Shown here: positions 1 through 12,696 of the stretch, piece by piece
Layout: every line of letters begins with the position of its first letter
How positions within the stretch are numbered: the stretch's first letter is position 1
Virus record (IMG/VR): IMGVR_UViG_2639763115_000001
Span: 1-12,696 of that record
DNA: 12,696 bases
Direction: 5' to 3' (one strand)
Origin: a virus
Lineage: Duplodnaviria; Heunggongvirae; Uroviricota; Caudoviricetes
Notes under the pieces: generated by a model
The model's database searches: none
The model's input: only the letters and a program-made list of their open reading frames with translations
Told to the model about the DNA's origin: nothing
Made by a program: the position numbers and the translations under genes

Positions 1-154
1 GTAAGTTGGCAGCATCACCTACAACGGCATTACCGCTATGCATTGCTCATCTTACACACAGCGCAATGTTGATAGATAACCCCAGCATGGAACATGGGTG
101 AAACAGTAGGTCAGAGCTTCAGGCTCTGTGTTGTCAATACAGTGAGGCATAATT

Positions 155-364: not shown

Positions 365-401
365 ATGCACTAATAAATCTATTATTTTCGTTGGATCCTT
401 C

Positions 402-452
402 TATAATGGTGGCCAACAACTCCCAGTGTAATTCGCTGTGAGTTGTTGGCCA
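402..452 (+). promoter_or_regulatory. Perfect -10 hexamer TATAAT (402-407) followed by a 13-bp perfect inverted repeat (410-422 / 440-452, 17-nt spacer); candidate promoter/operator or 5' UTR stem-loop for the 283-aa gene
   Basis: Read directly: TGGCCAACAACTC ... GAGTTGTTGGCCA. Sits in the 110-nt gap between the two plus-strand genes, 22 nt before the GGAGGAGG SD of the downstream gene. No convincing -35. Confidence 0.4.
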
Positions 453-474
453 TGTCAATTCTGGAGGAGGATCA

Positions 475-1326
475 ATGATAAATTATGTCTACGGCGAACA
501 ACTGTACCAGGAGTTCGTCAGCTTCAGGGATCTCTTTCTAAAAAAAGCTGTTGCACGCGCCCAACACGTTGATGCCGCCAGCGACGGTCGTCCTGTACGC
601 CCGGTTGTCGTTCTGCCGTTCAAAGAAACGGACAGCATTCAGGCTGAAATTGATAAATGGACTTTAATGGCGCGGGAACTGGAACAGTACCCAGACCTCA
701 ATATCCCAAAGACTATTTTATATCCTGTGCCTAACATCCTTCGCGGTGTGCGTAAGGTTACGACCTATCAGACAGAAGCTGTAAACAGCGTCAACATGAC
801 CGCTGGCCGCATTATTCATCTGATTGATAAGGACATTCGCATCCAAAAAAGCGCGGGGTTCAATGAGCACAGTGCGAAATACATAGAGAACCTGGAAGCA
901 ACAAAAGAGCTAATGAAGCAGTACCCGGAGGATGAAAAATTCCGTATGCGCGTACACGGCTTTAGCGAAACAATGCTGCGCGTTCACTACATCTCCAGTA
1001 GTCCTAACTACAATAACGGTAAATCAGTTAGTTACCATGTGCCGCTGTGTGGCGTGTTTATCTGCGATGAAACTCTCCGTGATGGAATCATCATCAACGG
1101 TGAATTCGAGAAAGCAAAATTTAGCCTTTATGACTCCATAGAACCGATCATCTGCGACCGCTGGCCACAAGCAAAAATATATCGCCTGGCAGATATTGAA
1201 AATGTAAAAAAACAAATTGCCATCACTCGCGAAGAGAAAAAGGTTAAGTCAGCCGCATCAGTTACGCGCAGCCGTAAAACCAAGAAGGGGCAGCCAGTAA
1301 ACGACAACCCCGAAAGCGCGCAATAA
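475..1326 (+). CDS. Hypothetical protein (283 aa) with a Lys/Arg-rich C-terminal tail
   Basis: ATG at 475 with strong SD GGAGGAGG. Long clean ORF ending 3 nt before a hairpin terminator. No family recognised by eye. Confidence 0.7.
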   Translation: MINYVYGEQLYQEFVSFRDLFLKKAVARAQHVDAASDGRPVRPVVVLPFKETDSIQAEIDKWTLMARELEQYPDLNIPKTILYPVPNILRGVRKVTTYQTEAVNSVNMTAGRIIHLIDKDIRIQKSAGFNEHSAKYIENLEATKELMKQYPEDEKFRMRVHGFSETMLRVHYISSSPNYNNGKSVSYHVPLCGVFICDETLRDGIIINGEFEKAKFSLYDSIEPIICDRWPQAKIYRLADIENVKKQIAITREEKKVKSAASVTRSRKTKKGQPVNDNPESAQ

Positions 1327-1358
1327 ATTATGCCCGGCATCAACCGGGCATTCTTCCA
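1327..1358. terminator. Hairpin between convergent genes (stem ATGCCCGG/CCGGGCAT 1330-1351, 6-nt loop); probable bidirectional terminator
   Basis: 8-bp GC-rich stem read directly, with AT-rich flanks on both sides. Lies between the stop of the 283-aa gene (1324-1326) and the stop of the alternate-frame segment (1359-1361). Confidence 0.55.
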
Positions 1359-1586
1359 TTATTCAGCCGCCACCGGTTTTAACAAGCCAGCATCGAGCAG
1401 TTTACGCGTCAACCACTGCTGGCCTTTACCCGTTAATTGAGGCGTCAACCGTATCTGATAGCCATCTTCATCATCCAGCACCACTTCTTTCACCGTGAAA
1501 TAATCGACTATGACGAACGATATAAGGCGTAATGTGAGCGCCAGCTCCCGCAGCTCCACAGCCACAGCATGGACGGGAAGCCACAA
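1359..1586 (-). other. Out-of-frame 3' continuation of the 1471-2370 gene (probable true C-terminus after a frameshift)
   Basis: This frame is open for 75 codons and ends exactly at the 1330-1351 hairpin. Its translation (…[15 protein letters not shown]…KPVAAE) looks protein-like, while the tail of the 299-aa frame (…[15 protein letters not shown]…) does not. Track start is TTG. Confidence 0.3.
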
Positions 1587-2370
1587 AGTCCATGTACTCG
1601 GGCAATTTTAGCGATTGAAGTTTTGGTATTTTGAAATGCGCCATACCTGGGTCGGAGTCAACATCCACAGGGCATACTTTTGCACGCATCGGCGCGGCGC
1701 GTTCTTCCATCATTTGAACATATGCTGTAGCGCGATCGTCATACGGGCGAATATCCGCCTCTTTCAGAGGTCCGCTATCCTGCGGAGTAGCCTTCATCTT
1801 ATTTATTGATATGCGGCAGACTTCTTCCGGCATCAGGTGCATCATGTTGCGCATGAAAGCCCACCAGCACAGCTCCTGAATACTTAAATCATGGCTATTT
1901 GAAAGGCCCATTTCCTGACGGGCGACATCCAGTATCCAGTTAACGCGATTATTGTGCAGCGTTTCTTTCAGCTCATTAAAACCACGCATCCGGTAATGGT
2001 TATCGTGATGCCAGCACAACAACACCGCGCTATTGTCTCGTTCTGCGTGGACAATATGGTTGTCACACCAACTACGATCTGCGGCCTGGCATTGACCCTC
2101 TTTCCTACGCAACCACGCCACCAGCGCGTCAATTCCACCAATACGGCGAAACAGTTCATCGCTGTTAAAAAACGGCTGCAACGCCTCATTTGTTGCCATG
2201 GTTTGCTCCGTAACAACGAGGCCGTCTTCCATGTGCTCGATTAACTCACGCGGCACCGGCTCCATAATAAATTTACGGCCAGCCTCCACCAGCTTTCGGA
2301 CCTCCTGATCCACTTTGAACGTGGCGAGGCCAAGCTCTTTCTGTACAAAGGGAGTAATTACGGCTTTCAC
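1471..2370 (-). CDS. Phage protein with a Cys/His cluster (C-x2-H … C-W-H-H-x2-H), HNH-like/metal-binding; tentatively DUF968-like; apparently frameshifted near 1580
   Basis: GTG start at 2370 with AAGGTG SD 5 nt upstream. Motif [24 protein letters not shown] read from the translation. Family assignment is from memory only. Confidence 0.55.
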
Positions 2371-2397
2371 ATCACACCTTTAATCACTGATTGGGCT

Positions 2398-2577
2398 TTA
2401 TCTGCTGCCCGGCATTATCTGTTTAAGCACAACCATTTCCTGACGGCATAACACAGCAATAGCAGTCCTGGCTCCAATTTGCTTACCAACCAGGTATTGC
2501 TTTACCTCGCGGCGACTCACGCCATCAAGAAGCATCTTTAACGCTTCACGGGACAATTTGTTGTATTTGCGTGCCAT
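2398..2577 (-). CDS. Small basic hypothetical protein (59 aa) immediately downstream of doc
   Basis: Internal ATG at 2577 with GGAG SD 7 nt upstream, 5 nt after the doc stop codon. The track ORF starts at an upstream ATG (2598) that overlaps doc. Confidence 0.45.
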   Translation of the reverse strand: MARKYNKLSREALKMLLDGVSRREVKQYLVGKQIGARTAIAVLCRQEMVVLKQIMPGSR

Positions 2578-2581
2578 TAAT

Positions 2582-2962
2582 CTACTCCGCAGAACCATAC
2601 AATCTACGTAACGTGGCGGCGACAGAAGATACAGATATCTCGCCAGTCGCAGCGCCTACAGTAAGGTCTGCCAGTTCAGGTGAATCAAATACCTGCACCC
2701 CGTTACGGCGTAGAAATAGCAGCGCACTGTTTAGCGCGGTACGCTTATTGGCATCATTGAATATATGCCCTCTCGCTGTAGCCACCAGGTAGGTGGCGGA
2801 GACTTCGAAAAGGTCGGTGATCTCTTCGTAGGCAACTCTGGCCTGAACTCTCCCGATAATGGCCTCTGCCCTACCCGGATCTGACATTCCCGGCAGGCCG
2901 CCGTAGCGGCTTATATTCGCATCATGAAGCGCAATAAGTTCTTCCGGTGATATATGCCTCAT
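2582..2962 (-). CDS. doc: Doc toxin (Fic-fold kinase, death on curing), 126 aa
   Basis: Translation carries the Fic/Doc active-site motif [12 protein letters not shown] and matches P1 Doc as I remember it over its whole length. Start ATG shares one base with the phd stop (TAATG). Confidence 0.95.
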
Positions 2963-3183
2963 TATCGGTTAACCAGTTCCTTGTTGGTGGAGTCCAGGGT
3001 GTCAAACAGGGATGCAAATTCAGCATCCAGCGCCGCTTTTTTGTAGGCTTCGAAAGTAGCCTTGCTGACAATTACTGCTGGCTCACGGCCTCTGCGGGTG
3101 ATTTCAACCTCTTCCCCGGCTTCAACATTGTTGAGCACTTCAGAAAGGTTGCCGCGCGCGGTACGGAAGTTAATGGATTGCAT
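2962..3183 (-). CDS. phd: Phd antitoxin (prevent host death), 73 aa
   Basis: Translation from the internal ATG ([19 protein letters not shown]…) matches P1 Phd in sequence and length. GAGGTG SD 5 nt upstream. The track ORF begins 2 codons earlier on GTG. Confidence 0.93.
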
Positions 3184-3189
3184 AAACAC

Positions 3190-3221
3190 CTCGTGTACTC
3201 GTTATGTGTACACAATTATAA
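3190..3221 (-). promoter_or_regulatory. Putative phd-doc promoter/operator: perfect palindrome TGTGTACACA (3205-3214), adjacent GTGTAC half-site (3193-3198), minus-strand -10 TATAAT (3215-3220)
   Basis: Palindrome and hexamer read directly. Phd/Doc are known to autoregulate through palindromic operator sites at their promoter. -35 is poor. Confidence 0.5.
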
Positions 3222-3255
3222 ACTTCACAGGCATAAAGCACCAGCACTTTGCAGC

Positions 3256-3645
3256 TTAAATCACCGGACAGTCATCAAATTCCCCACTTCGGGCATCATT
3301 GATGACATGAGTGATCACACCAAAAACAGCATTACTACCCGTGTAACCATCGTCATCTACTGGTAACGCCTCTTTCTTCCCGGTGCTTAAATCCTCCAGG
3401 TGCTGGCGCGGATACTTTCGGTATCTCTTTATGCGATATTCACCCTCCATAGCGCAGACAAGCAGCGAACCATCAACCGGAGTAAGCGAGGAATCAACCA
3501 CCAGCAAAGCACCCTGCAATATTCCCTCACGGTGATGGCTGTCTGCCGCCCGCATGAAGTATGTCGCTGATGGATGCCTGATTAGTTGCTGATCAAGAGA
3601 AATTCTGCTTTCAACATAATCCGCCGCAGGAGAAGGGAAGCCCAT
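3256..3645 (-). CDS. humD: UmuD'-like protein (S24 peptidase fold), encoded already in the processed form
   Basis: Starts MGFPSPAADYVE…, the N-terminus UmuD has only after RecA-mediated cleavage at Cys24-Gly25. Conserved HPSATYF and LLVVDSS blocks. GAGGTG SD. No umuC-like polymerase follows. Confidence 0.85.
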   Translation of the reverse strand: MGFPSPAADYVESRISLDQQLIRHPSATYFMRAADSHHREGILQGALLVVDSSLTPVDGSLLVCAMEGEYRIKRYRKYPRQHLEDLSTGKKEALPVDDDGYTGSNAVFGVITHVINDARSGEFDDCPVI

Positions 3646-3662
3646 AGCGTTTTCACCTCAAC

Positions 3663-3682
3663 AATACTGTTTATTTATACAG
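3663..3682. promoter_or_regulatory. LexA (SOS) box TACTGTTTATTTATACAGTA
   Basis: CTGT-N8-ACAG with TA flanks, about 17/20 to the E. coli consensus. Lies 18 nt upstream of the humD start codon and 138 nt upstream of the divergent 191-aa gene. Confidence 0.8.
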
Positions 3683-3819
3683 TATACATTAAAGAGACAC
3701 CTTTGGTGCAAACGCGTTATGTACATCAACCACCGCAGATGATTTTGTGCGCTTTGCTACTATTCATCACCAACGGATCAGCGTAACCTCGTTGCCAATC
3801 AGTTAATAAGGAATTAGCT

Positions 3820-4395
3820 ATGCCTAATCGCATTCCTCTCGATCCTGTATTGCCCAAAAATTTTGACTGCACTCCTAACGAGAAACGCTCTAAAGCTCAG
3901 CTGGACGCCTGGTGGGATCATCCGTATGGAGTTACACAATCTGACGGGAAAATTGTTGTTTTTTGTCTAAACGGTGGCGCGTGGGACCGTCCATCCATGC
4001 TTTGTTTGGCAGATAACTATGATGACGCCTGTGAACTTGCAGAAAGAAAGCAGGCAAGCTGGGTAAAAACACGGTCTAAACCGTCATTCATGTTTTCAAT
4101 AGAACCGCCATTTATCCTAGCAAGGATGCCGCAGCGACCAGACCAGGAACAGCAAGAGATTGTTGCCGAATTTGATTCAAGGGAAGAAATGAACCTCTTC
4201 ACGATGAAACAGGAACAAGAAGAGAATCTTGGAGTTTCACCATTTTTGGATCACAAGAGTATGAACCTCGACCTGCTTATCTGGTACAGCAATGAGCTTG
4301 AGTTATCGCTGTCCCGGCTTGAAAAAGAAAAAGCAGCTATCCAGGCACAACGTGAAGCTGTGTTGGCGCGGATTAAAGAAGTACAGAACGGATGA
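3820..4395 (+). CDS. Hypothetical protein (191 aa) with C-terminal coiled-coil, divergent from humD across the LexA box; possibly the lxr (LexA-regulated) position of P1
   Basis: ATG at 3820 with AAGGA SD. The lxr assignment is positional only, not sequence-based. Confidence 0.6.
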   Translation: MPNRIPLDPVLPKNFDCTPNEKRSKAQLDAWWDHPYGVTQSDGKIVVFCLNGGAWDRPSMLCLADNYDDACELAERKQASWVKTRSKPSFMFSIEPPFILARMPQRPDQEQQEIVAEFDSREEMNLFTMKQEQEENLGVSPFLDHKSMNLDLLIWYSNELELSLSRLEKEKAAIQAQREAVLARIKEVQNG

Positions 4396-4401
4396 TTGCT
4401 G

Positions 4402-4653
4402 TTATTTTTTGATGGTATCGTCTTTTTGGTATACCGGATCGCTTCCCTTTGGCAACTGGAGGCTTAACTGCCGGTAGTGCCGTAGACGTTCCATGAAATA
4501 GGTGCGCAGGTTCTCTGGTTGCTCGCGGGCTACCTGTTCAGCTATGACAGGTATGTTCAATCGCTCTTTGTAGGCAACCCCCCTAGCAGCCAGGTCAACG
4601 TTAACTTTATTCCTTTCTTCCTGGCTTTTAGCTGCTATGTTCCATTCGTTCAT
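4402..4653 (-). CDS. hot: Homolog of DNA polymerase III theta subunit (HolE-like), 83 aa
   Basis: [42 protein letters not shown] aligns with E. coli theta ([42 protein letters not shown]). Second in-frame ATG chosen, giving the 83-aa length I recall for P1 Hot; the track ORF starts 4 codons earlier (4665). Confidence 0.85.
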
Positions 4654-5121
4654 ATTAAATCCCATCCAGAATAATTGAATAACGGCTATTATTTAGTCGC
4701 CGCAATATCTTCAAAGTTTTTTTCTCACCCCATTGCTTTTTGCGCACAGCTTATCTGGCTTGCGGTGCGCCGAAATGTAAATTCGCCTTCAGAGTTATCC
4801 ACAAAGTTATGCACTTGCAACGAGGCCATTTTCCTCATACTGTGTTTGCACACACAGGAAATGGATATTTTATTAATTGAATTTTATTAAATAATAATGA
4901 TAAGGAGAAAATTTGAGATGTAATCATGACATTAATAGATAGGGCCTGCATTACAGGCCCCAACTACATCAAGGAATTCACAGTTCCCTGATTTTTATAC
5001 CGAAAACATGTGCCGTAAGTTCACGTTAACGACTTTCTTTCACCGAATCCAACTATATAGAGGTTGGGTTTCTACGTCAACGTGAGAGCACACAGCTTTA
5101 CATTTGACGAGGATTACCCTG

Positions 5122-5259
5122 ATGATTGTAATTTTTCAGTTTCTAAGTGCATTTTTAAATGCGCCTGTTCTTAGCCAAGTGCTGGCGATTGTCTTCATCG
5201 TGGTTCTGATATGGTTTTTCAAGTCAGTGATAAACAGAGGCGTGCGCTGGCTTATTTAA
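5122..5259 (+). CDS. Small hydrophobic protein (45 aa, MIVIFQFLSAFLNAPVLSQVLAIVFIVVLIWFFKSVINRGVRWLI); one predicted transmembrane helix, basic C-terminus
   Basis: Not in the ORF track. ATG at 5122 with GAGGA SD 8 nt upstream. Only plus-strand gene in an AT-rich intergenic island. Confidence 0.3.
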   Translation: MIVIFQFLSAFLNAPVLSQVLAIVFIVVLIWFFKSVINRGVRWLI

Positions 5260-5442
5260 TGTCGCGCTGAGATATTAATTCCCTTGCTGTTTAACCATTT
5301 TTTGTGTGTGCTGGTGAGCGTGTGAAGGCTCAATTTGTTGCCCACCAGTATTTACTATTTCTAAGCTCCACAGTGTCACTTCCGCACAAACAACTTAGCG
5401 CGGAATCAGTATTCGGCCCAAGATGTAAAAAGCCAACCTGCG

Positions 5443-5709
5443 TTATGGTTCGCATTTCCAAATAGTGTTCTGAACGCCCGTGCCGGGCGCGAGATGTGGA
5501 TTAGCGTTCGCGCTATGCTGATATACGGCTTTAGACTTTCCATATTGCTGACAGGCTTTATCTGCGGTTTTTTGCAGGCTATCCAGCCCATACCAGCCAT
5601 CAGACTGGATGCTTACCTTTTCACCGTCATTGTATTGCACCATTGCACACCCGGACATAGCCAGCATCGCACCGACAATAACGCTTTTCCATAAAACTCT
5701 ATGCAACAT
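5443..5709 (-). CDS. Putative small lipoprotein (88 aa from ATG; signal peptide with lipobox-like AMSGC)
   Basis: N-terminus MLHRVLWKSVIVGAMLAMSGC has a basic n-region, hydrophobic core and Cys. Track ORF starts on TTG two codons upstream. SD-like GAGGGGA lies inside the upstream terminator stem. Confidence 0.45.
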   Translation of the reverse strand: MLHRVLWKSVIVGAMLAMSGCAMVQYNDGEKVSIQSDGWYGLDSLQKTADKACQQYGKSKAVYQHSANANPHLAPGTGVQNTIWKCEP

Positions 5710-5713
5710 ATAC

Positions 5714-5745
5714 AAAAATCCCCTCTGTGAATTGAGGGGATTTTA
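5714..5745. terminator. Rho-independent terminator hairpin (TCCCCTC / GAGGGGA, 8-nt loop) with A-tract and T-tract flanks
   Basis: Read directly. Lies 34 nt downstream of the stop of the 249-aa minus-strand gene; the T-run follows the stem on the minus strand. Confidence 0.6.
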
Positions 5746-5778
5746 GCATGGTGATCAGATATCAGCTTTATCAGGAAT

Positions 5779-6528
5779 TTAATCAGCCTCCAGTGGCAAT
5801 AACGCCTTAGCCATTTCATGAACCAACATGGCATCAATGACGCCTAGCGTATGGCCCGGCTTAATCTTTAATGCGGCCTCAAGATAGCCTCTTTCCAGAG
5901 TGGTTTTTACGCTTTTCCTGGGCGCCTGTTGGGAACTATCCGGAAGATCCGGATGGTTCCCAGCCTCATAAGCTATCCGCAACCAGTGCATGAATGTTTC
6001 CGCAGACACACAACCGCAGTCCACATCGATTTTCCCGCGTTGCTGTTCCAGCCATTGCCCAAAATCCAACCTGTAAGCCTTACTTTCAAGTTCATCGCCA
6101 TTGAACTCGACTTTCTGCGACGCTATGAGAGCTGATTCGTATTGTTCGCGAGTGACAACTGACTGGTATTCATCGCTATCAAGATCACCAATTGGAAGCT
6201 CAATCTCACAACAAAAATTGCGCCCAAAGAACGTGTCTTTTTTGTGGTCTGAGCCAAAAGCAAAAGTCGCGCATGGCGCCATTAAATTGGCACTGAGCAG
6301 GCGACAATCGATCATACCATCAGGCCACCCGCCGCACTTAGGCAGCTCCTTCACTAACAAGTCGATAAGCTTCATTTTTTTATCATCTTTGCTAGTTGCT
6401 AACGCCATTTTTGCAAGTCCAAATACTTCATCTGCCGTATATCCAGCACCGTGACCATACATTTCGATACGGGAAATAATCTCTGATATACGCTCTTTAG
6501 TGATTCTGGTCATTTCTTTTTGCGCCAT
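5779..6528 (-). CDS. Hypothetical protein (249 aa)
   Basis: Long ORF. The ATG at 6528 has an AAGGA SD about 12 nt upstream; an alternative ATG at 6513 forms an ATGA start/stop overlap with the upstream gene. Confidence 0.7.
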   Translation of the reverse strand: MAQKEMTRITKERISEIISRIEMYGHGAGYTADEVFGLAKMALATSKDDKKMKLIDLLVKELPKCGGWPDGMIDCRLLSANLMAPCATFAFGSDHKKDTFFGRNFCCEIELPIGDLDSDEYQSVVTREQYESALIASQKVEFNGDELESKAYRLDFGQWLEQQRGKIDVDCGCVSAETFMHWLRIAYEAGNHPDLPDSSQQAPRKSVKTTLERGYLEAALKIKPGHTLGVIDAMLVHEMAKALLPLEAD

Positions 6529-6884
6529 TTCTTTTCACATTCCTTAGTCCATTTTTCAATGTTCATTTTGGCAATATCAGTCATTCCATCGCCTAAGAAA
6601 TACCTTTCCCGGTATGTCTTGCACTTAAACCACACTACAATAGCCACCAGCCAGAAAATAAAAGGCCAGACAGCAATACCAACTACAGCCACGATAAAGT
6701 CCAATAGACACAAATGAAGCTCCCCTACTTCTGTTTCAGGCAATATCTTTAAAGAGTTAAACAGCAGACTGAACGAATGGTCGTATGCAGTAGCGCTATA
6801 AGACATACAATCCATATAATTAAAATCATAGCCTGCGGCTGCCGCCCATAATGGGCAGTCAAGAAAATGTTTGAATGTCATCAT
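6510..6884 (-). CDS. Hypothetical membrane protein (124 aa), one long hydrophobic segment and a Lys-rich C-terminus
   Basis: ATG-ATG start at 6884 with no clear SD. Hydrophobic stretch FIVAVVGIAVWPFIFWLVAIVVWF. Confidence 0.5.
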   Translation of the reverse strand: MMTFKHFLDCPLWAAAAGYDFNYMDCMSYSATAYDHSFSLLFNSLKILPETEVGELHLCLLDFIVAVVGIAVWPFIFWLVAIVVWFKCKTYRERYFLGDGMTDIAKMNIEKWTKECEKKWRKKK

Positions 6885-6950
6885 ATAAATTTAATCAGTT
6901 ACACAGTGTGGCTGCTTCCCTGCCGTAACAGCAGGGTAATAAAGTTATAA

Positions 6951-7115
6951 TCAGTCTCCAGATAGAGATATAGCTAACGCACCAACGAGGAATAAGGTGC
7001 TACCAGCCAATGCACCGCAGCTCTCCGTTCCCCATTCAACGCCACCAGCCAAAGCCACAAAAAAACCACAAACACAGACAAATATAAACGTCGCCCAAAA
7101 CTGTTTCTTTTTCAT
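6951..7115 (-). CDS. Small membrane protein (54 aa, MKKKQFWATFIFVCVCGFFVALAGGVEWGTESCGALAGSTLFLVGALAISLSGD)
   Basis: Not in the ORF track. ATG at 7115 shares a base with the stop of the upstream gene (TAATG). GGAG 9 nt upstream. Two hydrophobic segments. Confidence 0.35.
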   Translation of the reverse strand: MKKKQFWATFIFVCVCGFFVALAGGVEWGTESCGALAGSTLFLVGALAISLSGD

Positions 7116-7408
7116 TATGGGGTGCTCCAGTTATCTTCAATTACAATGCTCAACCTTTGTAGCCATTCTGCTAATTTCAGCATTGCTTCTCTTTCGCTTA
7201 AACCACGCGGGAAATCATCAAGCGATATTGTTGGCTTGAAGTTCCCGAAATTATCCATTTCAACTGTCAGATTTTGCTCTAACACGGTATTCCTGACACG
7301 GCTATTGTGCCGAAGCAAATATACTGATCGTGATTCATTAGTTTTGTGGTCGAATTGATATTCGGTAAGTATCATCTGGCTTTTGCCATGACTATTACCT
7401 CTCCACAT
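7115..7408 (-). CDS. Hypothetical protein (97 aa from the internal ATG)
   Basis: ATG at 7408 with GAGG SD 7 nt upstream. The track ORF (7115-7495) extends further upstream across a small overlapping ORF, so the longer start is less likely. Confidence 0.5.
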   Translation of the reverse strand: MWRGNSHGKSQMILTEYQFDHKTNESRSVYLLRHNSRVRNTVLEQNLTVEMDNFGNFKPTISLDDFPRGLSEREAMLKLAEWLQRLSIVIEDNWSTP

Positions 7409-7415
7409 ACTTACC

Positions 7416-7538
7416 TCACTTAATAAAACAACTCCATGCGTAGTTGATGATTTTTTCCCACGCAATATAAATCTGCACTCCAGCAGTAAAACCAAAGCCT
7501 ACAATTGCTGAAAAAATCAAAACATTTACTTTTGACAT
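7416..7538 (-). CDS. Small hydrophobic peptide (40 aa, MSKVNVLIFSAIVGFGFTAGVQIYIAWEKIINYAWSCFIK)
   Basis: Not in the ORF track. Weak SD. Stop lies 8 nt before the ATG of the downstream 97-aa gene. Confidence 0.25.
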   Translation of the reverse strand: MSKVNVLIFSAIVGFGFTAGVQIYIAWEKIINYAWSCFIK

Positions 7539-7586
7539 TATAAAATTTCTCTCGGTGTCGTAGGTGATAGCACCATAATTGATAAT

Positions 7587-7919
7587 TTAGTGAGTTAGCA
7601 GCTTCATTTTTTTGATGATTTCCGCATGAGCATCATCGTTATCAACACTTAGCTCGTTTAATGCTTCTCGCACTACATCAACTTCTTCAGGCTGAAAGAA
7701 GTCGTCGCGGTAATCACCAAATAGAACCGAAACCAGCCTGGCACCAGCAACATCAAGATTAGCGCTAACAGGTGGCTCGATATCTCGCCCACAATTCCAG
7801 GCTTTTTGGGCTTCTTCCAGCGTGTAAACATGAGCGCGATCGATATCAGAGCTGTAACCATTGCCGTTATGGCAATGGAATGAAGCGTTATTACCCACAG
7901 TTTCACGCGAGCACATCAT
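7587..7919 (-). CDS. Hypothetical Cys/His-containing protein (110 aa from ATG)
   Basis: Track ORF starts on TTG at 7961 and would overlap the upstream gene by 32 nt. First ATG (MMCSRE…) lies 10 nt after the upstream stop. Cys3, His15, Cys16, His17, Cys43 near the N-terminus. Confidence 0.5.
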   Translation of the reverse strand: MMCSRETVGNNASFHCHNGNGYSSDIDRAHVYTLEEAQKAWNCGRDIEPPVSANLDVAGARLVSVLFGDYRDDFFQPEEVDVVREALNELSVDNDDAHAEIIKKMKLLTH

Positions 7920-7929
7920 GTAAAAACGG

Positions 7930-8511
7930 TTACTCACTGGTTGCCCCCTGAATACGCTCAAACTCGATTACCCAAACCCAGGGATTAGCGTTCCAACTTT
8001 CTTCGCCATAAATTGATTCCCATAGGCTACGGAAACCTGGGTAATGCTTATCGCCAATGAGGGTAAATTCTGTTGGTGCGCCCTCAGCCCTTGCATCGCA
8101 TTCGCTGATATCGTTCAACCGCTCAACGCGCACGTTGGTAATTTCCAGCAAAATGCGCGATGCCCAGCGCGGCATGTGAATTGATGGCGTCCACTTTTCT
8201 GATACTGGCTTATTACAAACCTCAACCGGAACCCGGTGCGTTTGTTCTGTCCAGGAGTTACGCACGCTTGCGCGATAAACCAGCGTTGCGACGTCCGTCG
8301 CTTTGCCATGTACCCGGTAGGTTTCACGAACCCAAATACGATCTCCCGGTTGACCATATGGACAATGTTTAGCAAGCAACTCTGCGGCCACTGCCCGTCC
8401 ATAGAATTTTTCTTCAACAATCCTGCGAGTCTGTGTTTTATTCCCGCCAAGAATTGCCCGGACCATCTCATCGTTGAAAATCATGCCGCGCTCTTTCACT
8501 TCGCCTTTCAT
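7930..8511 (-). CDS. Phage protein, tentatively ASCH-like domain (193 aa)
   Basis: ATG at 8511 with AAGGGGGA SD. The MIFNDEMVRAILGGNKTQTRR … PGDRIWVRETY pattern recalls ASCH-type phage proteins; assignment from memory. Confidence 0.65.
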   Translation of the reverse strand: MKGEVKERGMIFNDEMVRAILGGNKTQTRRIVEEKFYGRAVAAELLAKHCPYGQPGDRIWVRETYRVHGKATDVATLVYRASVRNSWTEQTHRVPVEVCNKPVSEKWTPSIHMPRWASRILLEITNVRVERLNDISECDARAEGAPTEFTLIGDKHYPGFRSLWESIYGEESWNANPWVWVIEFERIQGATSE

Positions 8512-8520
8512 GCATCCCCC

Positions 8521-8607
8521 TTACCCATGCGCGACAATGCCGCCAAAAGTGATAGAGAACAGCCAGAAATAGATCGCGGCCATAATGATTTTGAATGCCG
8601 TGTTCAT
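8521..8607 (-). CDS. Small hydrophobic peptide (28 aa, MNTAFKIIMAAIYFWLFSITFGGIVAHG), first ORF of the operon
   Basis: Not in the ORF track. Consensus AGGAG SD exactly 8 nt upstream of the ATG. Ends 10 nt before the next gene. Confidence 0.3.
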   Translation of the reverse strand: MNTAFKIIMAAIYFWLFSITFGGIVAHG

Positions 8608-8634
8608 ATTTTCAGCTCCTGTGATTGATTGGAT

Positions 8635-8666
8635 ACATGCCGCGCCTTGCGGCATGTTTTTATTTT
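8635..8666 (+). terminator. Strong hairpin (9-bp stem ACATGCCGC/GCGGCATGT, 5-nt loop) followed by TTTTTATTTT on the plus strand; terminator-like in plus orientation, or a 5' UTR stem-loop of the minus-strand operon
   Basis: Read directly. On the minus strand the stem is preceded by an A-tract and has no U-tract, so it would not terminate minus-strand transcription. Confidence 0.45.
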
Positions 8667-8676
8667 CACTTTCTCT

Positions 8677-8706
8677 GTTTTAAAAATCAATATTTATTAG
8701 AGCAAT
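8677..8706 (-). promoter_or_regulatory. C1-repressor-operator-like site ATTGCTCTAATAAATAT (8690-8706) overlapping a putative promoter (-35 TTGCTC, 17-nt spacer, -10 TAAAAC at 8677-8682)
   Basis: 16/17 match to the P1 C1 operator consensus ATTGCTCTAATAAATTT as I recall it. Overlaps the HAD gene stop codon by 1 nt; lies upstream of the 28-aa ORF and ASCH-like gene. Confidence 0.55.
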
Positions 8707-9212
8707 TATTGTTGATGGAGAAGCGCGTTTTCATACTCCCTGACCATTAACGTAAGCACGCCGTGCCTCCTGAAAACACGCGCCACTTCAATCTTATCTT
8801 CCAGCGCGAACGCGATTTTACTTAGACCAATTTTCTTAAGGAGATCAATCTTTGCTGGGCCGTCATTTCTGTCATCGGTGGCAGGACGCATAGATAGCAA
8901 AGGCTCAGCCCCGTTTGTTACGTACTTCCGCAGCCAGGCTCGTGTTTTATCCCTTGCGATCTCACAGCGCCCGGTTACAAACCAGACCGTGTAAACGTTA
9001 AATAACTGGCGCACAATATCAATAACTGGAGTTATGGGAGTATCAGTGTCACAGGCGAGATTAAACTCGTTCCAGTCCTTTGTTAATGCACCTTTACCTG
9101 GTGGCGGAAGCAAATGCAGTCTGTCTTCAGTTGCCTCTGATATTGTTCCATCAATATCAACTATGACGATATACGGACGTTCCTGGTGTGCGTGTTTATT
9201 GAAAATACTCAA
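8706..9212 (-). CDS. HAD-superfamily phosphatase/nucleotidase-like protein (168 aa)
   Basis: Motif I VIVDIDGT near the N-terminus, later T (WFVTGR) and K/DD-like positions. Only in-frame start is TTG at 9212, preceded by strong GAGGAGGG SD. Confidence 0.65.
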   Translation of the reverse strand: MSIFNKHAHQERPYIVIVDIDGTISEATEDRLHLLPPPGKGALTKDWNEFNLACDTDTPITPVIDIVRQLFNVYTVWFVTGRCEIARDKTRAWLRKYVTNGAEPLLSMRPATDDRNDGPAKIDLLKKIGLSKIAFALEDKIEVARVFRRHGVLTLMVREYENALLHQQ

Positions 9213-9230
9213 ATGCCCTCCTCATTGGAC

Positions 9231-9264
9231 GAAAAAAATGCTGGTGGGCGCACTCCACCAGCAT
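9231..9264 (-). terminator. Rho-independent terminator (10-bp stem ATGCTGGTGG/CCACCAGCAT, 7-nt loop, then T7 on the minus strand)
   Basis: Read directly. Lies between the 420-aa gene stop (9285) and the HAD gene start (9212), so it may act as an attenuator. Confidence 0.65.
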
Positions 9265-9284
9265 TAAAAGTGACACTGTAACTG

Positions 9285-10547
9285 TCAGCGAACGTAAATA
9301 GTGCCGCCGTTCTCTTTTTCCCATGCATCGCTACGTGCATAGCAAACATCGAGAAGTCTTCTTGCCGCTGTTTCCTCTAAACCCAATTCGACAACCAACT
9401 GCTCATGACGGCGGGTAACCACATCAAACAGGGTATGCAGCCCTTTAGCTGCCAGATCATCAATAAATTCCGGTTCGAACGGCAGCTCTGCATCTGCCAA
9501 CATAACCTCTTGCGCCCACTCGACACGGCGGACCAGTTCCGGGCGGCGGCTTTCCATCTCTTTACAGATCAATTCATGGAAGAACTCTACCCAACCTTCC
9601 GGCTGGAACTCGCGGAAAATGGCCAGCGGCTGGAAGTTTGGCATCAACCATTCGTTGATTCGGATATCAATGGCATAGCCCATGTCGCAGCAGAACTGAT
9701 AAGCAAAGTCCAGCTTAGAAACGATATAAGGACGCTCGTTATTGAACTCTTTAGGCGATGAGATCCCATAAGCCAGGAGGCGCGGGAAGAAGGAGATTTG
9801 CCCTAACGTCGGATGAAGTTTGCTTGCAGGGAAACGGCGCTCAGTAATGCCATACATTTCCTTCTTGAGCGTCGCAAATTTGGCATTCTCATTAACCAGC
9901 GCGGTAACCTCTGCTTTTTTATTAGCAAATGCCACGCGCGCTTCGCTTGCATCTTTAATAGTTTTTTTGAGCTGTTGGTTAAGATCGGCGACCTGCTTAC
10001 GCAGTTCCTGTCGCTCGCTTTTAGCTTTGTTATAGCGTTTCTCAAGGTTAAAAGGATCAAGTTTCATGATCTCTTTATATTGAGATTTTAGCGTTGAAAT
10101 CTGTGAGTTCCGCAGTTCAACCATCGCGGTCATTTCATTGAGTTTTGTTTCCAGCTCAATGCTTATACGTTCGGCATTATCAGCACGCTGGTTGGCGTCA
10201 TGCGTCGCATCGTCGATCGCGTCCTGTTGCTGGCGTTTCAAATGTTCAATTTGTAGCTGAAGCTCTTCAATTTCTTTACCCTTCAGACCGAGATCCAACT
10301 GCATATTTTCAGCTGCATCTACCAGGGAGTTATGGCTATCAGCTTCTGCGTTATAAACATCAATAAGCTGTGCGTGAAGCATCTCCGCTGACTGAACCGC
10401 ATTATCAAAAAAACGCGCTGTGAGGTCATCACAACTAACGCGGCGTTGCGCGGCCCGGATGTTCTGGATAATGGCTGGGATACCGGCATTCAGGACGTCA
10501 GGGATAGATACATTTTCGATTGATTGGTTTTGTGCTGAAGTGCTCAT
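9285..10547 (-). CDS. Hypothetical protein (420 aa): N-terminal ~230-aa coiled-coil, uncharacterised C-terminal domain
   Basis: Long ORF with ATG start. Heptad-like, charge-rich sequence (…EELQLQIEHLKRQQQDAIDDA…) from the translation. Confidence 0.7.
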   Translation of the reverse strand: MSTSAQNQSIENVSIPDVLNAGIPAIIQNIRAAQRRVSCDDLTARFFDNAVQSAEMLHAQLIDVYNAEADSHNSLVDAAENMQLDLGLKGKEIEELQLQIEHLKRQQQDAIDDATHDANQRADNAERISIELETKLNEMTAMVELRNSQISTLKSQYKEIMKLDPFNLEKRYNKAKSERQELRKQVADLNQQLKKTIKDASEARVAFANKKAEVTALVNENAKFATLKKEMYGITERRFPASKLHPTLGQISFFPRLLAYGISSPKEFNNERPYIVSKLDFAYQFCCDMGYAIDIRINEWLMPNFQPLAIFREFQPEGWVEFFHELICKEMESRRPELVRRVEWAQEVMLADAELPFEPEFIDDLAAKGLHTLFDVVTRRHEQLVVELGLEETAARRLLDVCYARSDAWEKENGGTIYVR

Positions 10548-10548
10548 T

Positions 10549-10767
10549 TCAAAGTTCCGTATTAGCTTGTGCTTCGGTCATTTTTCCTAAGTATGAAGGT
10601 GGAAGGACTACGCAATTTGTATCCAGTCCCTCACCTATGGCAGCCTGTAAAATTCTGGCTAAGGTGAGTCTCTTGTTGCGATACCTGGTGATTACATGCC
10701 TGATACCGCCGGTCGGCGTAACAAAGGCGATCAGCCAGTAGTGATATTTCCGTCGGAATGGCCACAT
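10549..10767 (-). CDS. Hypothetical small protein (72 aa), first gene after the operator/promoter
   Basis: ATG at 10767 with AAGGTG SD 6 nt upstream. Stop is 1 nt before the ATG of the 420-aa gene. Confidence 0.45.
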   Translation of the reverse strand: MWPFRRKYHYWLIAFVTPTGGIRHVITRYRNKRLTLARILQAAIGEGLDTNCVVLPPSYLGKMTEAQANTEL

Positions 10768-10781
10768 AGCGCACCTTGTAG

Positions 10782-10847
10782 ATTGCTCTAATAAAAAACG
10801 TGATGAGTGTACATCACGTTTTAAAAATATGAAATTATTAGAGCAAT
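10782..10847. promoter_or_regulatory. Pair of inverted C1-operator-like sites (10782-10798, plus orientation, 14/17; 10831-10847, minus orientation, 15/17) flanking an 11-bp-stem hairpin (10795-10822) that is a terminator for the upstream gene; putative promoter -35 TTGCTC / -10 TAAAAC on the minus strand
   Basis: Read directly. Outer 12-bp arms ATTGCTCTAATA/TATTAGAGCAAT are perfect inverted repeats. Inner stem AAAACGTGATG/CATCACGTTTT is followed by T6 on the minus strand. Confidence 0.55.
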
Positions 10848-10848
10848 A

Positions 10849-11550
10849 TTATTCTGATTCTCGCTCAAAAAATGAGCTGATAAGGGGAAGCCAATCCTCT
10901 GACACTTCGCGAGGTCGCGGTTTGCCGTGGAAAAAGATTATTCGGCAGTCTTTTGGTAATGCCCCATTCCCCCTGGAGTAACGCGCGCTCGCATATTTTG
11001 AACCAGGTTCCACAACATCGGCCTTGTAACTTACAAACCATCCTGGATACAGATCCTGAAATGCTGGTGTATCATCGCCCATAACCTTTCGTAAGAACCC
11101 CTGGTCACCCCAGCACTCAGTAGTGACACAACGAGAAATCCAACCTTCCGGATCTTGCCAGAATGAACTCCAGATATGCGCTTTTACACTATTTGGTATC
11201 CACAGGGCACCGCTACCACGATATTGTGGATGGTAAAAATCCCTAAGCATGGTGAAGCTGGTTGGTGGATTCTCAAGGATTGGGCGTATATCACCGGCAA
11301 TAACTGTGTCCAAATCCAGATAGAACAGATCATCTGTTATATCCGGTCGGAACAACTCGATTTTCGTCCACCAGCCACGGCACTTTTGCCACTGGTTGAT
11401 CAATGGGACAACTTTGACGCCAGGTACATGTAAACGCTTCAGGTCTGTCAGGCAAATAATTTCATAGCCTTTTGGCAGTTGATTAACCAGCCACTGCACA
11501 TCGGAAGCGTTATAGTCACCACCAGAGCGAAGAACTAAAGCAATCTTCAT
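10849..11550 (-). CDS. Hypothetical protein (233 aa), possibly a GT-A-type glycosyltransferase (DxD-like FYLDLDTV motif)
   Basis: ATG overlaps the ppp stop (ATGA). The functional guess rests only on the DxD-like motif and N-terminal beta-alpha start and is weak. Confidence 0.6.
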
Positions 11551-12239
11551 GCTGCACCATCACCTTTCACTTTCATCAATGTCAGGTTTCCGCAAAATAC
11601 GGCACCAGTGTCGATATAATGCTGATTCCAGAATGTCTTCGGGCTTTTCACCGGAGTGTGACCAAAGATAAAACGATCTGCGCCCGAAATTTCGCCACCA
11701 ATATCATCCATCGAATCACTGATACGCTCGCGCGCCCAGACAACGTTGAAAAGCGGCACCTCCTTACCGAATTGATATTCATTATCCGGATAGTCGGCAT
11801 GGGCTATAACGATAGTTTCTTGCCCGGTGTTCAACTCAATGATATAGGGCAGTCGTCTTACCAACTCCACCAGCGCCCTGGCTAATATTTCCTGATCAGC
11901 GTCCAGCATGAAGAACCATTGACCGCCATTCATTAGCCAATTATTCACGTTGCCATCAGGACTTAACGCATCAATCATCAGCTGCTCATGGTTGCCCATA
12001 ACCGCTCTGAACCATGGCATCTGCAATAGCTCCAAGCATTTAACATTTTCGGTGCCGCGATCGATAAGGTCGCCGACCGATATCAGTAAATCCTGCGCAG
12101 GGTCAAAATCCACACGATGGAGTTCGGACATCAGTCTGGTGTAGCAACCATGCAGATCACCAACAACCCAGATATTCCTGTATTTGGTACCGTCGATACG
12201 GTGATAAATTGTTGGTGCCATCATGTATTCTTCAGCCAT
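11547..12239 (-). CDS. ppp: Ser/Thr protein phosphatase, lambda-PPase-like metallophosphatase
   Basis: GDLHG, GDLIDRG, GNHE and later His motifs; near-collinear with lambda PPase from the IDG(T/S)[15 protein letters not shown] block onward. Start could be 12239, 12224 or 12221; the last overlaps the upstream stop as TGATG. Confidence 0.9.
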
Positions 12240-12565
12240 TCTTTAAGAGTCATCTGCGGAATACCTCCCATTTTCCCGCATGAAACAACGTCAATCTGTT
12301 CACGCGCAGACTGGAATAACAAAGGCAGGTGACTTAGATTTTTTGGCGTGCCGCCGGAATGAACGCGTGGTTCTTGCGTAGCGTCAACGCCCACCAGGGC
12401 TACATGTTTGAATCCGATATGGAAAGCCAGGTTCAGAGCACCATATGCACTATTGCCGCTGGCAATTTCATTCTCATCTTCGCAAAGGCCGAAATGTGCG
12501 GACCAGCGCCACGCCCACCACTCGGGAGAATTCGTATTTTTTGGCTCCGTGCCGCGCTCAGCCAC
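12221..12565 (-). CDS. Hypothetical protein; 5' end uncertain (GTG start at 12565, or a frameshifted/longer gene entering from beyond the window)
   Basis: C-terminal part (…[27 protein letters not shown]…) looks protein-like. A second minus frame is open from the window edge (12696) to 12433 and overlaps it. Confidence 0.35.
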
Positions 12566-12696
12566 ACGACGGAAGCACAGAACGCCGTCTCTGACCTCAC
12601 GTTCTTTAACATCGGGTAACCTTTTTTCTGCCCTTCAGCCTTCATTTTCCCGGCGGTTGCTTTTGAACGTTTCCCTCTGAAGTGGTTTACTGAATT

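Follow-up and report, generated by a model that had tools for sequence, protein, structure and literature searches.

In phage P1 (NC_005856 / AF503408), ppp and pmgQ are catalogued genes, already named metallophosphoesterase and glycosyltransferase in RefSeq, and they belong to the operon pmgN-pmgO-pmgP-ppp-pmgQ, known in P7 as hdmA-hdmB-hdmC-ppp-hdmD. The P1 genes pmgO, pmgP, ppp and pmgQ have been reported to be non-essential, and single knock-outs or knock-downs of these genes gave no plaque phenotype (PMC10695390, PMC9024508). We found no functional study of pmgQ, pmgO or pmgP in the literature, including that on DUF115 in phages and on capsid glycosylation, and glycosylation is nowhere mentioned in the text of the P1 virion proteome paper.

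The stretch of DNA analysed here (the window, 12,696 nucleotides) is, judged by its sequence, a P1-like plasmid prophage. Positions 8420-12618 share 97.5% nucleotide identity with phage P1 (BLAST; positions 721-4919 of the P1 locus L001), and positions 8950-12696 are 100% identical to the E. coli plasmid pLKSZ04. As in P1, the gene order, the strand and both overlapping junctions are unchanged, and the PpmgR promoter region downstream is intact with its two C1 operators. Unlike P1, the window lacks 1201 bp, and its pmgM is additionally interrupted by an insertion sequence (IS). The region is very probably the downstream remnant of the P1 operon, i.e. an intact ppp and pmgQ lying behind a deletion stump of pmgP (Table 1). 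The original prediction had described three open reading frames here as a coupled operon of an unknown gene, a phosphatase and a DxD-motif protein; all three are present on the minus strand.

Table 1. Features of the P1-derived region, in window coordinates
Feature	Position	Strand	Description
pmgQ (P7 hdmD)	10849..11550	-	Intact, 233 aa; predicted GT8-like GT-A glycosyltransferase, D79-L-D81
ppp	11547..12239	-	Intact; predicted lambda-PPase/NinI-type metallophosphoesterase; candidate starts 12239, 12224, 12221
pmgP 3' stump	12221..12618	-	Codons 78-208 of 208; pseudogene; 114-aa ORF 12221-12565 inside
Deletion junction	12613..12618		CGGGTA; imperfect 6-bp microhomology with pmgM-side CGGATA in P1
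pmgM internal fragment (VRR-NUC)	12619..12677	-	Cut at both sides
Insertion sequence end, non-P1	12678..12696		Truncates pmgM; no P1 match

The truncated upstream end and its probable effect on expression

The 114-aa open reading frame had been taken for an upstream gene of unknown fold, but what it represents is the 3' end of a truncated pmgP and not a gene in its own right; PmgP is a putative Maf/CstII-like glycosyltransferase paralogue. The reading frame begins with a GTG at 12565, which corresponds to codon 95 of P1 pmgP and has no SD-like sequence upstream. The homology to pmgP extends past this GTG to 12618, where it ends at the deletion junction together with the collinearity to P1. A profile search of the 114-aa product, which the original prediction had proposed, matched the stump to the PmgP family (PHROG 2111, positions 78-208 of 208), and direct Pfam and NCBIfam scans of the stump gave no match. 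The window retains PmgP codons 78-208 (95-208 counted from the first start codon), PmgP homologues being 195-210 aa long. The complete ~200-aa PmgP domain is not found in the window, the N-terminal GSGPS nucleotide-binding strand and the invariant D53 having been lost, and PGAP labels the stump a pseudogene ('incomplete, missing N-terminus').

Between the junction sites 1201 bp of P1 are missing (L001 positions 4920-6120), and window positions 12613-12677 match L001 6121-6185 (BLAST against P1). The alignment indicates that a deletion of this length across a 6-bp near-repeat created the pmgP stump, taking out pmgN, pmgO and codons 1-77 of pmgP, both control elements (the promoter PpmgN and the C1 operator Oppp) and the 3' end of pmgM. 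The exact junction occurs in 9 of 581 P1-like plasmids and in 9 of the 583 E. coli genomes with a match. The pmgM fragment joins the pmgP stump out of frame, the joined frame stopping at 12433-12435; PmgM matches VRR_NUC, and its ELK motif falls in the deleted part. An IS end lies 65 bp past the junction. In pLKSZ04 this end runs on into truncated transposase genes (IS30 and IS1), and the same IS break point in pmgM is found in the non-deleted relative pHH194M-140K.

What remains is not a C1-controlled pmgN operon, as PpmgN and its operator Oppp (Op83) both lie inside the deleted 1201 bp. Scans of the window and of the next 1.2 kb of pLKSZ04 found no sigma-70-like promoter upstream of ppp on the minus strand, and terminator-like matches were at chance level. 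With the promoter and the C1 operator lost and no sigma-70-like site upstream of ppp, early co-expression is therefore not to be assumed, and the expression in early development that had been suggested is not supported for this operon. The IS or other plasmid genes could provide read-through into ppp-pmgQ. Decay is not visible in ppp and pmgQ because both open reading frames are intact. In this plasmid the glycosyl cassette would be disabled, PmgQ being left without both of its MptE-like partners and ppp-pmgQ without a recognisable promoter.

The stop/start overlaps have to be read against this background. At the pmgQ/ppp junction, TCAT at 11547-11550 on the plus strand gives ATGA on the minus strand (pmgQ ATG 11550-11548, ppp TGA 11549-11547), an overlap that was correctly predicted and is inherited unchanged from P1. 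The SD-like sequence AAAGGTGA lies ~9 nt upstream of the pmgQ ATG. At the junction between the pmgP stump and ppp (minus strand, ACATGATGGC), the frame of the stump ends in the TGA at 12223-12221, which overlaps two ATG codons, i.e. that at 12221-12219 (codon 7 of the long ppp ORF, giving TGATG) and that at 12224-12222 (codon 6, giving ATGA). PGAP starts ppp at codon 6 in the identical plasmid, and of the two codons only this one is kept in P1, where codon 7 is Ile. The P1 record puts the ppp start at 12239, giving a 19-nt overlap with pmgP, and ppp has only a weak SD. The predicted TGATG at 12219-12223 is thus real as a sequence overlap, but the upstream ORF is not a gene and the codon 7 start is absent in P1.

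The overlaps are no special signal, because genes in the window are, as a rule, tightly spaced or overlapping (phd/doc at 2962, pmgR/pmgS at 10547/10549, and overlaps at 7930-7961 and 6510-6528). Coupling from the pmgP stump to ppp appears unlikely because the stump is without a native start, SD and promoter; coupling from ppp to pmgQ is plausible. Production of the three proteins in a fixed ratio was not borne out, the upstream product belonging to a 5'-truncated pseudogene of the putatively Maf/CstII-like pmgP. ppp would now have no translated ORF upstream to couple to, and pmgQ, if transcribed, would still be translatable, since it has an SD of its own and overlaps ppp at ATGA.

Predicted activities of PmgQ, Ppp and PmgO/PmgP

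The pmgQ gene is predicted to encode an intact GT8-like glycosyltransferase, of retaining type by family, with a DxD metal/nucleotide-sugar site. Its product has 98% amino acid identity to P1 PmgQ (4 substitutions) and matches PHROG 1962 'glycosyltransferase' at 1.8e-127. The aspartates D79 and D81 are found in every one of 67 homologues, and R8, S9, G10, G11, G148, D149, Q150 and H208 are conserved in at least 90% of these sequences. When the family profile was compared with the PDB it found 6mw5 (7.8e-8) and glycogenin (~1e-5). The AF2 model (pLDDT 95.4) was used to search the PDB with Foldseek, and the best 15 matches were all GT8 proteins, including 6mw5 and glycogenin, with LgtC, GlyE and another GT8 protein lower; E values were 5e-9 to 1e-6 and TMq was 0.5-0.6, and the TM scores of the predicted fold were moderate, at 0.55-0.60. 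The profile matches, the AF2 fold, the Foldseek results and the invariant D79/D81 bear out the earlier suggestion that the DxD protein might be a glycosyltransferase, and the profile and structure searches proposed for the 233-aa product point to a nucleotide-sugar glycosyltransferase fold of GT-A/GT8 type. In the comparison with Pfam and NCBIfam models 0 families matched at E<=1, and we therefore call PmgQ GT8-like and not a curated GT8 member.

The ppp gene is predicted to encode an intact lambda-type Ser/Thr/Tyr metallophosphatase, orthologous to lambda-PPase. The resemblance to lambda-PPase that had been noted holds over the full length, Ppp aligning end to end with the lambda phosphatase structure 1G5B (residues 11-229, E 5.7e-95). 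The motifs GDLHG, GDLIDRG and GNHE can be read in this alignment, as can AHAD and GHTP, the putative downstream His ligands. Ppp also matches Pfam Metallophos (PF00149, 6.7e-16; 59.7 bits against a cut-off of 21.5), PRK11439 (2.8e-84) and the NinI-like PHROG 246 (1e-113), with scores of 282 bits for PRK11439 and 239 bits for PRK09968 that are under the NCBIfam equivalog cut-offs for PrpA/PrpB (326 and 332 bits). In GC and GC3, ppp is unremarkable beside the adjoining genes, so composition gives no sign of a recent foreign origin.

PmgO and PmgP appear, from profile matches and models, to be paralogous proteins with an MptE/Maf/CstII-like glycosyltransferase fold. PF01973 gave sub-threshold matches on the G-N-S...G-x-D segment, at 20.9 and 23.4 bits against its cut-off of 34.6. 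Foldseek with the full-length PmgP model gave weak matches to Maf (5mu5, E 5.6e-4, TM 0.52), MptE (8sd5, 1.4e-3) and CstII (2e-2), and the PmgP family profile found nothing among PDB sequences. Among the names given in RefSeq are 'motility associated factor glycosyltransferase family protein' and also 'alpha-2,3-sialyltransferase'. According to the P7 record, HdmB is similar to orf7 of Pseudomonas phage D3, which makes D3 a candidate carrier of the cassette. The idea that pmgO and pmgP are one frameshifted gene was rejected, each spanning its own family profile nearly end to end (PmgP 1-208 of 208 in PHROG 2111; PmgO 1-177 of 178 in PHROG 4603). The support for the fold is weaker for PmgP than for PmgQ. 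PADLOC gave no match for PmgQ, Ppp, PmgP, PmgO or Pap, so a defence or anti-defence label for these proteins finds no support.

Gene neighbourhoods and the proposed role of the intact cassette

Of 98 non-P1 loci with a PmgQ relative, 49 had an MptE-like gene on the same strand no more than 2.5 kb away, and 1 had a Ppp relative nearby. The MptE-like gene was present at 34 of 68 genome loci, in 20 of the 33 non-P1 viral contigs with PmgQ relatives, and at 38 of the 39 loci flanked by phage structural genes; the PmgQ and MptE/Maf-like pairs are often inside phage head-gene modules. Searching BFVD with the PmgQ model placed phage proteins of 700 aa and 685 aa, both named 'MptE-like', at ranks 2 and 4, which is consistent with a fusion of MptE-like and PmgQ domains. 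Methyltransferase genes, of the types Methyltransf_24 and FkbM, flank PmgQ relatives at 33 of the 98 loci, and nucleotide-sugar biosynthesis genes were looked for inside the phage cassettes at these 98 loci and none were found. The nearest chromosomal relatives of PmgQ (43-49% identity) occur in Erwinia, Rosenbergiella and Martelella alba and are followed by a Wzy_C/O-antigen-ligase-like gene. This neighbour in Erwiniaceae chromosomes favours envelope glycans over virion proteins.

Ppp accompanies PmgQ only in the P1/P7 sub-lineage. The P1-like phage JK004, locus L117 and the lambdoid phage phiNP carry pmgO-pmgP-pmgQ without ppp, the phiNP trio lying between the lysis genes and terS, and phage D6 has ppp alone; the three genes of the original prediction do not constantly co-occur. 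The 233-aa protein is predicted to have a glycosyltransferase fold; the genes are separable across phages, and P1 mutants show no plaque phenotype. As ppp is separable from pmgP-pmgQ, the phosphatase is therefore read as a lineage-specific insertion. The ancestral functional unit would be the glycosyl cassette PmgO/PmgP plus PmgQ; in the E. coli/Salmonella/Pantoea P1 sub-lineage ppp would have come in at a site between pmgP and pmgQ, acquiring the ATGA junctions, and would be a passenger and not an obligate partner.

The intact cassette is likely to have a late or lytic function, given its repression by C1 in P1 and its place within late structural operons of many other phages. Its probable activity is to attach a short glycan, made from host nucleotide sugars, to a protein. 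Among the possible acceptors we favour a virion (head) protein most, with somewhat less than an even chance. More tentative still is the general proposal that PmgO/PmgP plus PmgQ is a widespread glycosylation cassette of tailed phages with Gram-negative hosts that decorates virion head proteins. The cassette would then be expressed with the late genes, usually from between the major-capsid and head-tail-connector genes, often with a sugar-type methyltransferase alongside and with the two domains apparently fused in some phages. In E. coli the cassette would be represented by the P1 'pmg' and P7 'hdm' genes, ppp being a secondary insertion, and in the plasmid of the window it would have been knocked out naturally.

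Alternatively the cassette, possibly including the orphan PmgQ here, may modify the host envelope and not the virion. For example, a sugar on the LPS core, which is the P1 receptor, could stop progeny or competing phages from adsorbing to infected cells or debris. LPS-core transferases belong to GT8 and LgtC is among the fold matches of PmgQ, the O-antigen-ligase-like gene that follows the Erwinia, Rosenbergiella and Martelella alba relatives points the same way, and the N-terminus of PmgP very weakly resembles the Kdo transferase WaaZ (E 0.1), although this match is not significant. However, the P1 operon is repressed in lysogens, and ~39 other loci lie within late structural operons, which would leave little time for LPS export. 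PmgQ is also short and soluble-looking, with no Lpt, flippase or ligase partner in the phage loci, and we consider envelope modification improbable.

The original prediction, that a three-gene coupled unit made in fixed ratio acts with Doc and a HAD phosphatase to reprogramme host proteins early by (de)phosphorylation, has very little chance of being correct. The stop/start overlaps are real, Ppp appears to be a genuine protein-phosphatase-type enzyme, and the P1 operon is under a C1 operator and so de-repressed at induction. However, the first gene is a promoterless 5'-truncated pseudogene, Ppp and PmgQ are found apart in related phages, and the P1 knock-outs and knock-downs are without a plaque phenotype. 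The unusual density of phospho-transfer enzymes (Doc, HAD phosphatase and ppp) is not a functional group: Doc is the toxin of a phd-doc addiction pair, with a Fic match (3e-9) at 2582-2962 and PhdYeFM_antitox (3e-13) directly preceding it at 2962-3189. This Fic-fold toxin and Phd/YefM antitoxin form a toxin-antitoxin module of their own, 8.6 kb away from ppp, and the HAD/PNKP-like gene Pap is also separate. The model is largely refuted by the anatomy of the deletion.

P1 DNA is cut by restriction enzymes in the normal way. Glycosylation of phage DNA by the cassette, as a hypermodification guarding against restriction, is the least probable reading of all and was rated unlikely: some phage GT-A enzymes are known to glycosylate 5hmC DNA (bioRxiv 10.1101/2023.12.21.572611) and methyltransferase genes do lie beside a third of the PmgQ relatives (33/98), but these are Methyltransf_24/FkbM and not C5-cytosine DNA methyltransferases, general labelling of the neighbourhoods picked out no dioxygenase or thymidylate-synthase genes, and P1 pmg knock-outs left antirestriction activity unchanged (PMC9024508).

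Comparison with known systems

The results are in part corrective: the 'unknown gene' is a deletion stump, the operon here is without its regulatory region, and the pairing of the phosphatase with the glycosyltransferase is not conserved. Of more interest is a by-product of the analysis, i.e. that an MptE/Maf-like plus GT8-like cassette is a recurrent feature of head-gene modules in many proteobacterial phages and is also present in P1. If the cassette does glycosylate virions, phage virion glycosylation would be extended beyond mycobacteriophages, and E. coli/P1 genetics would offer a direct route for studying it.

PmgQ resembles the GT8 enzymes (glycogenin, the Skp1 alpha-galactosyltransferase 6MW5, LgtC and GlyE) in its predicted GT-A fold, its DxD motif and its conserved C-terminal HG.P.P motif (H208, G209, P211, P213); it differs from them in having ~15% identity, in being shorter (233 aa) and in having no direct match to Pfam PF01501. 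Ppp aligns over its full length with lambda NinI (1G5B), metallophosphoesterase motifs included, and resembles E. coli PrpA/PrpB with scores under their cut-offs; unlike the lambda phosphatase gene, the P1-type ppp lies inside the glycosyl cassette and not in the nin region. The nearest folds to the full-length PmgP model are those of Maf, the CstII/Cst-I sialyltransferases (GT42) and the MptE HPPK 8SD5, although the PmgP scores are weak and the window keeps residues 78-208 only. Phage-encoded virion glycosylation was reportedly described in mycobacteriophages by Freeman et al. in 2023. The hosts there are different and the comparison is an analogy only; what the two systems have in common is non-essential phage glycosyltransferase genes tied to structural genes.

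Identity of the genes and a deletion that removed the regulatory region

Positions 10700-12696 gave 19 near-full-length megablast matches to phage records at 97-98% identity (P1, P7, SJ46, RCS47 and relatives), every one split in two pieces, with ∼3.2 kb of phage for ∼2.0 kb of query. In the P1 RefSeq/GenBank records the genes lie on one strand in the order pmgM, the promoter PpmgN with the C1 operator Oppp, pmgN, pmgO, pmgP, ppp and pmgQ; beyond pmgQ come PpmgR, which has two C1 operators, and then pmgR, pmgS and pap. The E. coli plasmid pLKSZ04 (NZ_CP030285.1) is 100% identical to positions 8950-12696. The remainder of the window contains the P1 variable region, including humD and phd-doc; P1, P7 and SJ46 cover only 66-83% of positions 1-8420, the known variable pmgT-humD region, at ∼94% identity. 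The genes are already known and annotated; locally, all that is new is the naturally occurring allele with the 1.2-kb deletion.

BLAST showed that positions 8420-12618 are collinear with 721-4919 of the P1 reference locus (L001), and that 12613-12677 then jumps to L001 6121-6185; 1201 bp are absent relative to P1, between the near-identical hexamers CGGGTA and CGGATA. Lost with them are pmgP codons 1-77, the whole of pmgO and pmgN, Oppp (formerly Op83), PpmgN and the final third of pmgM, where the ELK motif of the nuclease lies. The 114-aa ORF upstream of ppp, originally taken for an unknown gene, is the deletion stump of pmgP: collinearity with P1 breaks here, the stump matches PHROG 2111 at positions 78-208 of 208, and PGAP labels it a pseudogene with its N-terminus missing. 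Its frame is open from 12616 and corresponds to PmgP residues 78-208 (database homologues are 195-210 aa), while the GTG at 12565 that starts the ORF is PmgP codon 95, before which no Shine-Dalgarno (SD) sequence was seen by inspection. The stump retains neither the N-terminal GSGPS strand nor the invariant D53 and so cannot function as an enzyme.

At the far side of the deletion a 65-bp internal fragment of pmgM abuts the stump, out of frame with it, and the joined frame stops at 12433; the final 19 bases of the window form an insertion-sequence (IS) end (TGAAGTGGTTTACTGAATT...). Beyond it in pLKSZ04 lie a truncated transposase ORF that opens with MKKRNFSAEF, an IS30 that is also truncated, and IS1A. 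The identical IS break occurs in pHH194M-140K, a relative retaining the 1.2 kb, so the IS inserted first and the deletion came second. A search for the exact deletion junction found it in 9 of 581 matching plasmids (E. coli, E. albertii, Shigella, Salmonella), and 9 of the 583 E. coli genomes having a match also carry it; the allele represents a genuine natural lineage, though a minor one.

In a promoter scan of the coding strand upstream of ppp, neither the window nor the following 1.2 kb of pLKSZ04 had a sigma-70-like promoter. Immediately after pmgQ lies the pmgR promoter, and both C1 operators that flank it are intact, so the next operon, pmgR-pmgS, keeps immunity control, while that of ppp-pmgQ is lost. 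In this plasmid PmgQ would be orphaned, ppp-pmgQ would probably be poorly expressed or silent, and the sole plausible coupling left would be that of ppp to pmgQ.

Coordinates of features in the window and of related loci
Feature	Position	Remarks
ORFs without Pfam match	475-1326, 3820-4395, 5779-6528, 7587-7961, 7930-8511	within window 1-8420
DUF968 protein	1471-2370	within window 1-8420
Doc, Fic-fold toxin	2582-2962	paired with Phd, 2962-3189
Pap, HAD/PNKP-phosphatase-like	8706-9212	minus strand; next operon
C1 operators ATTGCTCTAATAAAAAA, ATTGCTCTAATAATTTC (OpmgRb, OpmgRa in P1)	10782-10798 (+), 10831-10847 (-)	intact
pmgM remnant and IS end	12613-12696; 3664-5518 of the pLKSZ04 locus (L003)	deletion on one side, IS on the other
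Head-module cassette loci	L010-L020, L037-L050, L072, L120-L152	e.g. L120 6036-8540, L144 6106-8438
Wzy_C/O-antigen-ligase-like gene	∼8000-10000 of L008, L009, L011, L035	membrane protein gene; directly after the nearest chromosomal PmgQ relatives

Stop/start overlaps

The three ORFs and both overlaps noted from the sequence are present, on the minus strand. ATGA (11550-11547) forms the ppp/pmgQ junction, with an SD-like AAAGGTGA ∼9 nt upstream; at the junction of the pmgP stump and ppp (ACATGATGGC), TGA 12223-12221 overlaps both ATG 12224-12222 and ATG 12221-12219. Since codon 7 of ppp is Ile in P1, only codon 6 is conserved as an overlapping start, and PGAP uses it too in pLKSZ04. In the P1 record the annotated ppp start lies another 15 nt upstream; the alignment with lambda PPase begins at residue 11 of Ppp, which fits the shorter forms. 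Adjacent genes across the whole window likewise abut or overlap, and the overlaps are ordinary phage gene packing, copied from P1. The pmgO/pmgP overlap in the P1 record is unusually long, at 103 nt (L001 5046-5148).

Enzyme classes

The lambda-PPase-like class of the middle gene is confirmed: 1G5B, the lambda phosphatase, aligns with Ppp from end to end (E 5.7e-95), with GDLHG, GDLIDRG and GNHE visible, and Ppp also matches Pfam Metallophos (6.7e-16), PRK11439 (2.8e-84) and the PHROG 'NinI-like' (1e-113). There are 8 residue differences from P1 Ppp.

The guess that the 233-aa protein, PmgQ, is a DxD glycosyltransferase is also supported. PmgQ has no direct match in Pfam or NCBIfam; it falls in PHROG 1962, 'glycosyltransferase', and a search found 106 homologues. 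In an alignment of 67 sequences V6, K63, D79 and D81 are invariant, and conservation is 90% or higher for RSGG (8-11), GDQ (148-150) and H208-G-x-P-x-P. Among solved structures the family profile hits GT8 enzymes, namely Skp1 alpha-galactosyltransferase 6mw5 (7.8e-8) and glycogenins (∼1e-5), and a Foldseek search of the PDB with the AF2 model (pLDDT 95.4) gave 6mw5 and glycogenin at ranks 1-15, with LgtC, GlyE and one more GT8 protein lower down. These profile and model matches support a GT8-like glycosyltransferase, so named because the curated family model was not reached.

P1 PmgO and PmgP each have sub-threshold matches to PF01973 (MptE-like) on the G-N-S...G-x-D segment, and each also matches the other's PHROG; one of the two PHROGs carries the name 'alpha-2,3-sialyltransferase'. 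The possibility that they are one split gene was rejected; they are tandem paralogues. Full-length PmgP, modelled with high confidence (pLDDT 94.6), is structurally nearest to 5MU5, a flagellin glycosyltransferase of the Maf type (E 5.6e-4), to archaeal MptE and to the CstII/Cst-I sialyltransferases, a suggestive but weak likeness. Conservation in the PmgP family alignment begins only at ∼residue 9, and the annotated P1 start of pmgP may therefore be too far upstream.

A conserved glycosyltransferase cassette and its possible role

A scan with a single genome for each species yielded 68 loci with PmgQ relatives, and IMG/VR more than 585. Ppp adjoins PmgQ only in P1/P7-like loci and one Pantoea relative; among 98 non-P1 loci a Ppp relative occurs once, on the opposite strand and 2.5 kb away, while an MptE-like gene lies on the same strand within 2.5 kb in 49 and a Methyltransf_24 or FkbM methyltransferase is nearby in 33. 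Phage structural genes flank the pair in 39 of the 98, all but one of these 39 having the MptE-like gene; upstream are TerL, portal, protease and major capsid, and downstream connector, tail and tape measure. In many HK97-type (pro)phages of Proteobacteria a cassette of an MptE/Maf-like and a PmgQ-like (GT8-like) gene, often with one of these methyltransferases, is placed after the gene for the major capsid protein and before that for the head-tail connector; in several of these loci, a collagen-repeat protein gene lies just upstream. The P1-like Cronobacter phage JK004 (L155 1499-6349) and an IMG/VR contig (L117 854-3938) have pmgM-(pmgN)-pmgO-pmgP-pmgQ-pmgR without ppp, lambdoid phiNP (L154 4876-6645) has the PmgO-PmgP-PmgQ trio between Rz (lysis genes) and terS, and P1-like phage D6 (L156 3490-4182) has ppp without pmgO/pmgP/pmgQ, among nin/ea-type genes. 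The three genes therefore do not always co-occur; the conserved unit is PmgO/PmgP plus PmgQ, and these gene arrangements mark ppp as a secondary insertion in one sub-lineage. Among BFVD matches to the PmgQ model, the top one is nameless (A0A7D0GP32, 441 aa, TMq 0.76), and ranks 2 and 4 are uncultured-phage proteins named 'MptE-like', A0A6J5PVH5 (700 aa, TMq 0.68) and A0A6J7XC21 (685 aa, TMq 0.71), each with a region that superposes on the model; the two may be natural fusions of both cassette enzymes.

The separability of ppp removes the argument for a concerted phospho-transfer system, and Doc/Phd and Pap belong to the standard P1 backbone as modules independent of each other. Pap, annotated 'P1 acid phosphatase', matches the PNKP HAD phosphatase domain PF25109 (6e-12) and is listed as a 3'-phosphatase/5'-polynucleotide kinase in one P7-like plasmid paper; nucleic-acid-end repair seems as likely a role as acid phosphatase. 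The original observation is confirmed in part and its interpretation supported in part: the enzyme classes stand, but the operon logic and host-modification story do not.

In intact phages the cassette would be lytic or late, given the C1 operator in P1 and its position in structural operons elsewhere. The neighbourhood survey found no nucleotide-sugar synthesis genes inside phage cassettes, so host donors would be required. Single knock-outs and CRISPRi knock-downs of P1 pmgO, pmgP, ppp and pmgQ gave no plaque phenotype (PMC10695390; PMC9024508), and glycosylation goes unmentioned in the paper on the P1 virion proteome. The reading we rank first, tentatively, is that the intact cassette may glycosylate a virion protein, because of the late/structural setting, the protein-glycosylating members of both families and the P7 record, where the hdm genes are labelled 'head morphogenesis' and HdmB is likened to phage D3 orf7. 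Modification of the envelope (LPS core) comes second: the nearest chromosomal PmgQ relatives (Erwinia, Rosenbergiella, Martelella alba) are 43-49% identical, and the Wzy_C/O-antigen-ligase-like membrane protein gene that comes directly after them is a hint that envelope glycans are the target of some family members. That the cassette glycosylates DNA is unlikely.

The conserved MptE-like plus GT8-like phage cassette is the lead worth following. Both enzyme families include cytoplasmic protein-glycosylating members, namely Maf, acting on flagellin, and, within GT8, glycogenin and GlyE, all three of which are among the fold matches of the PmgP and PmgQ models.
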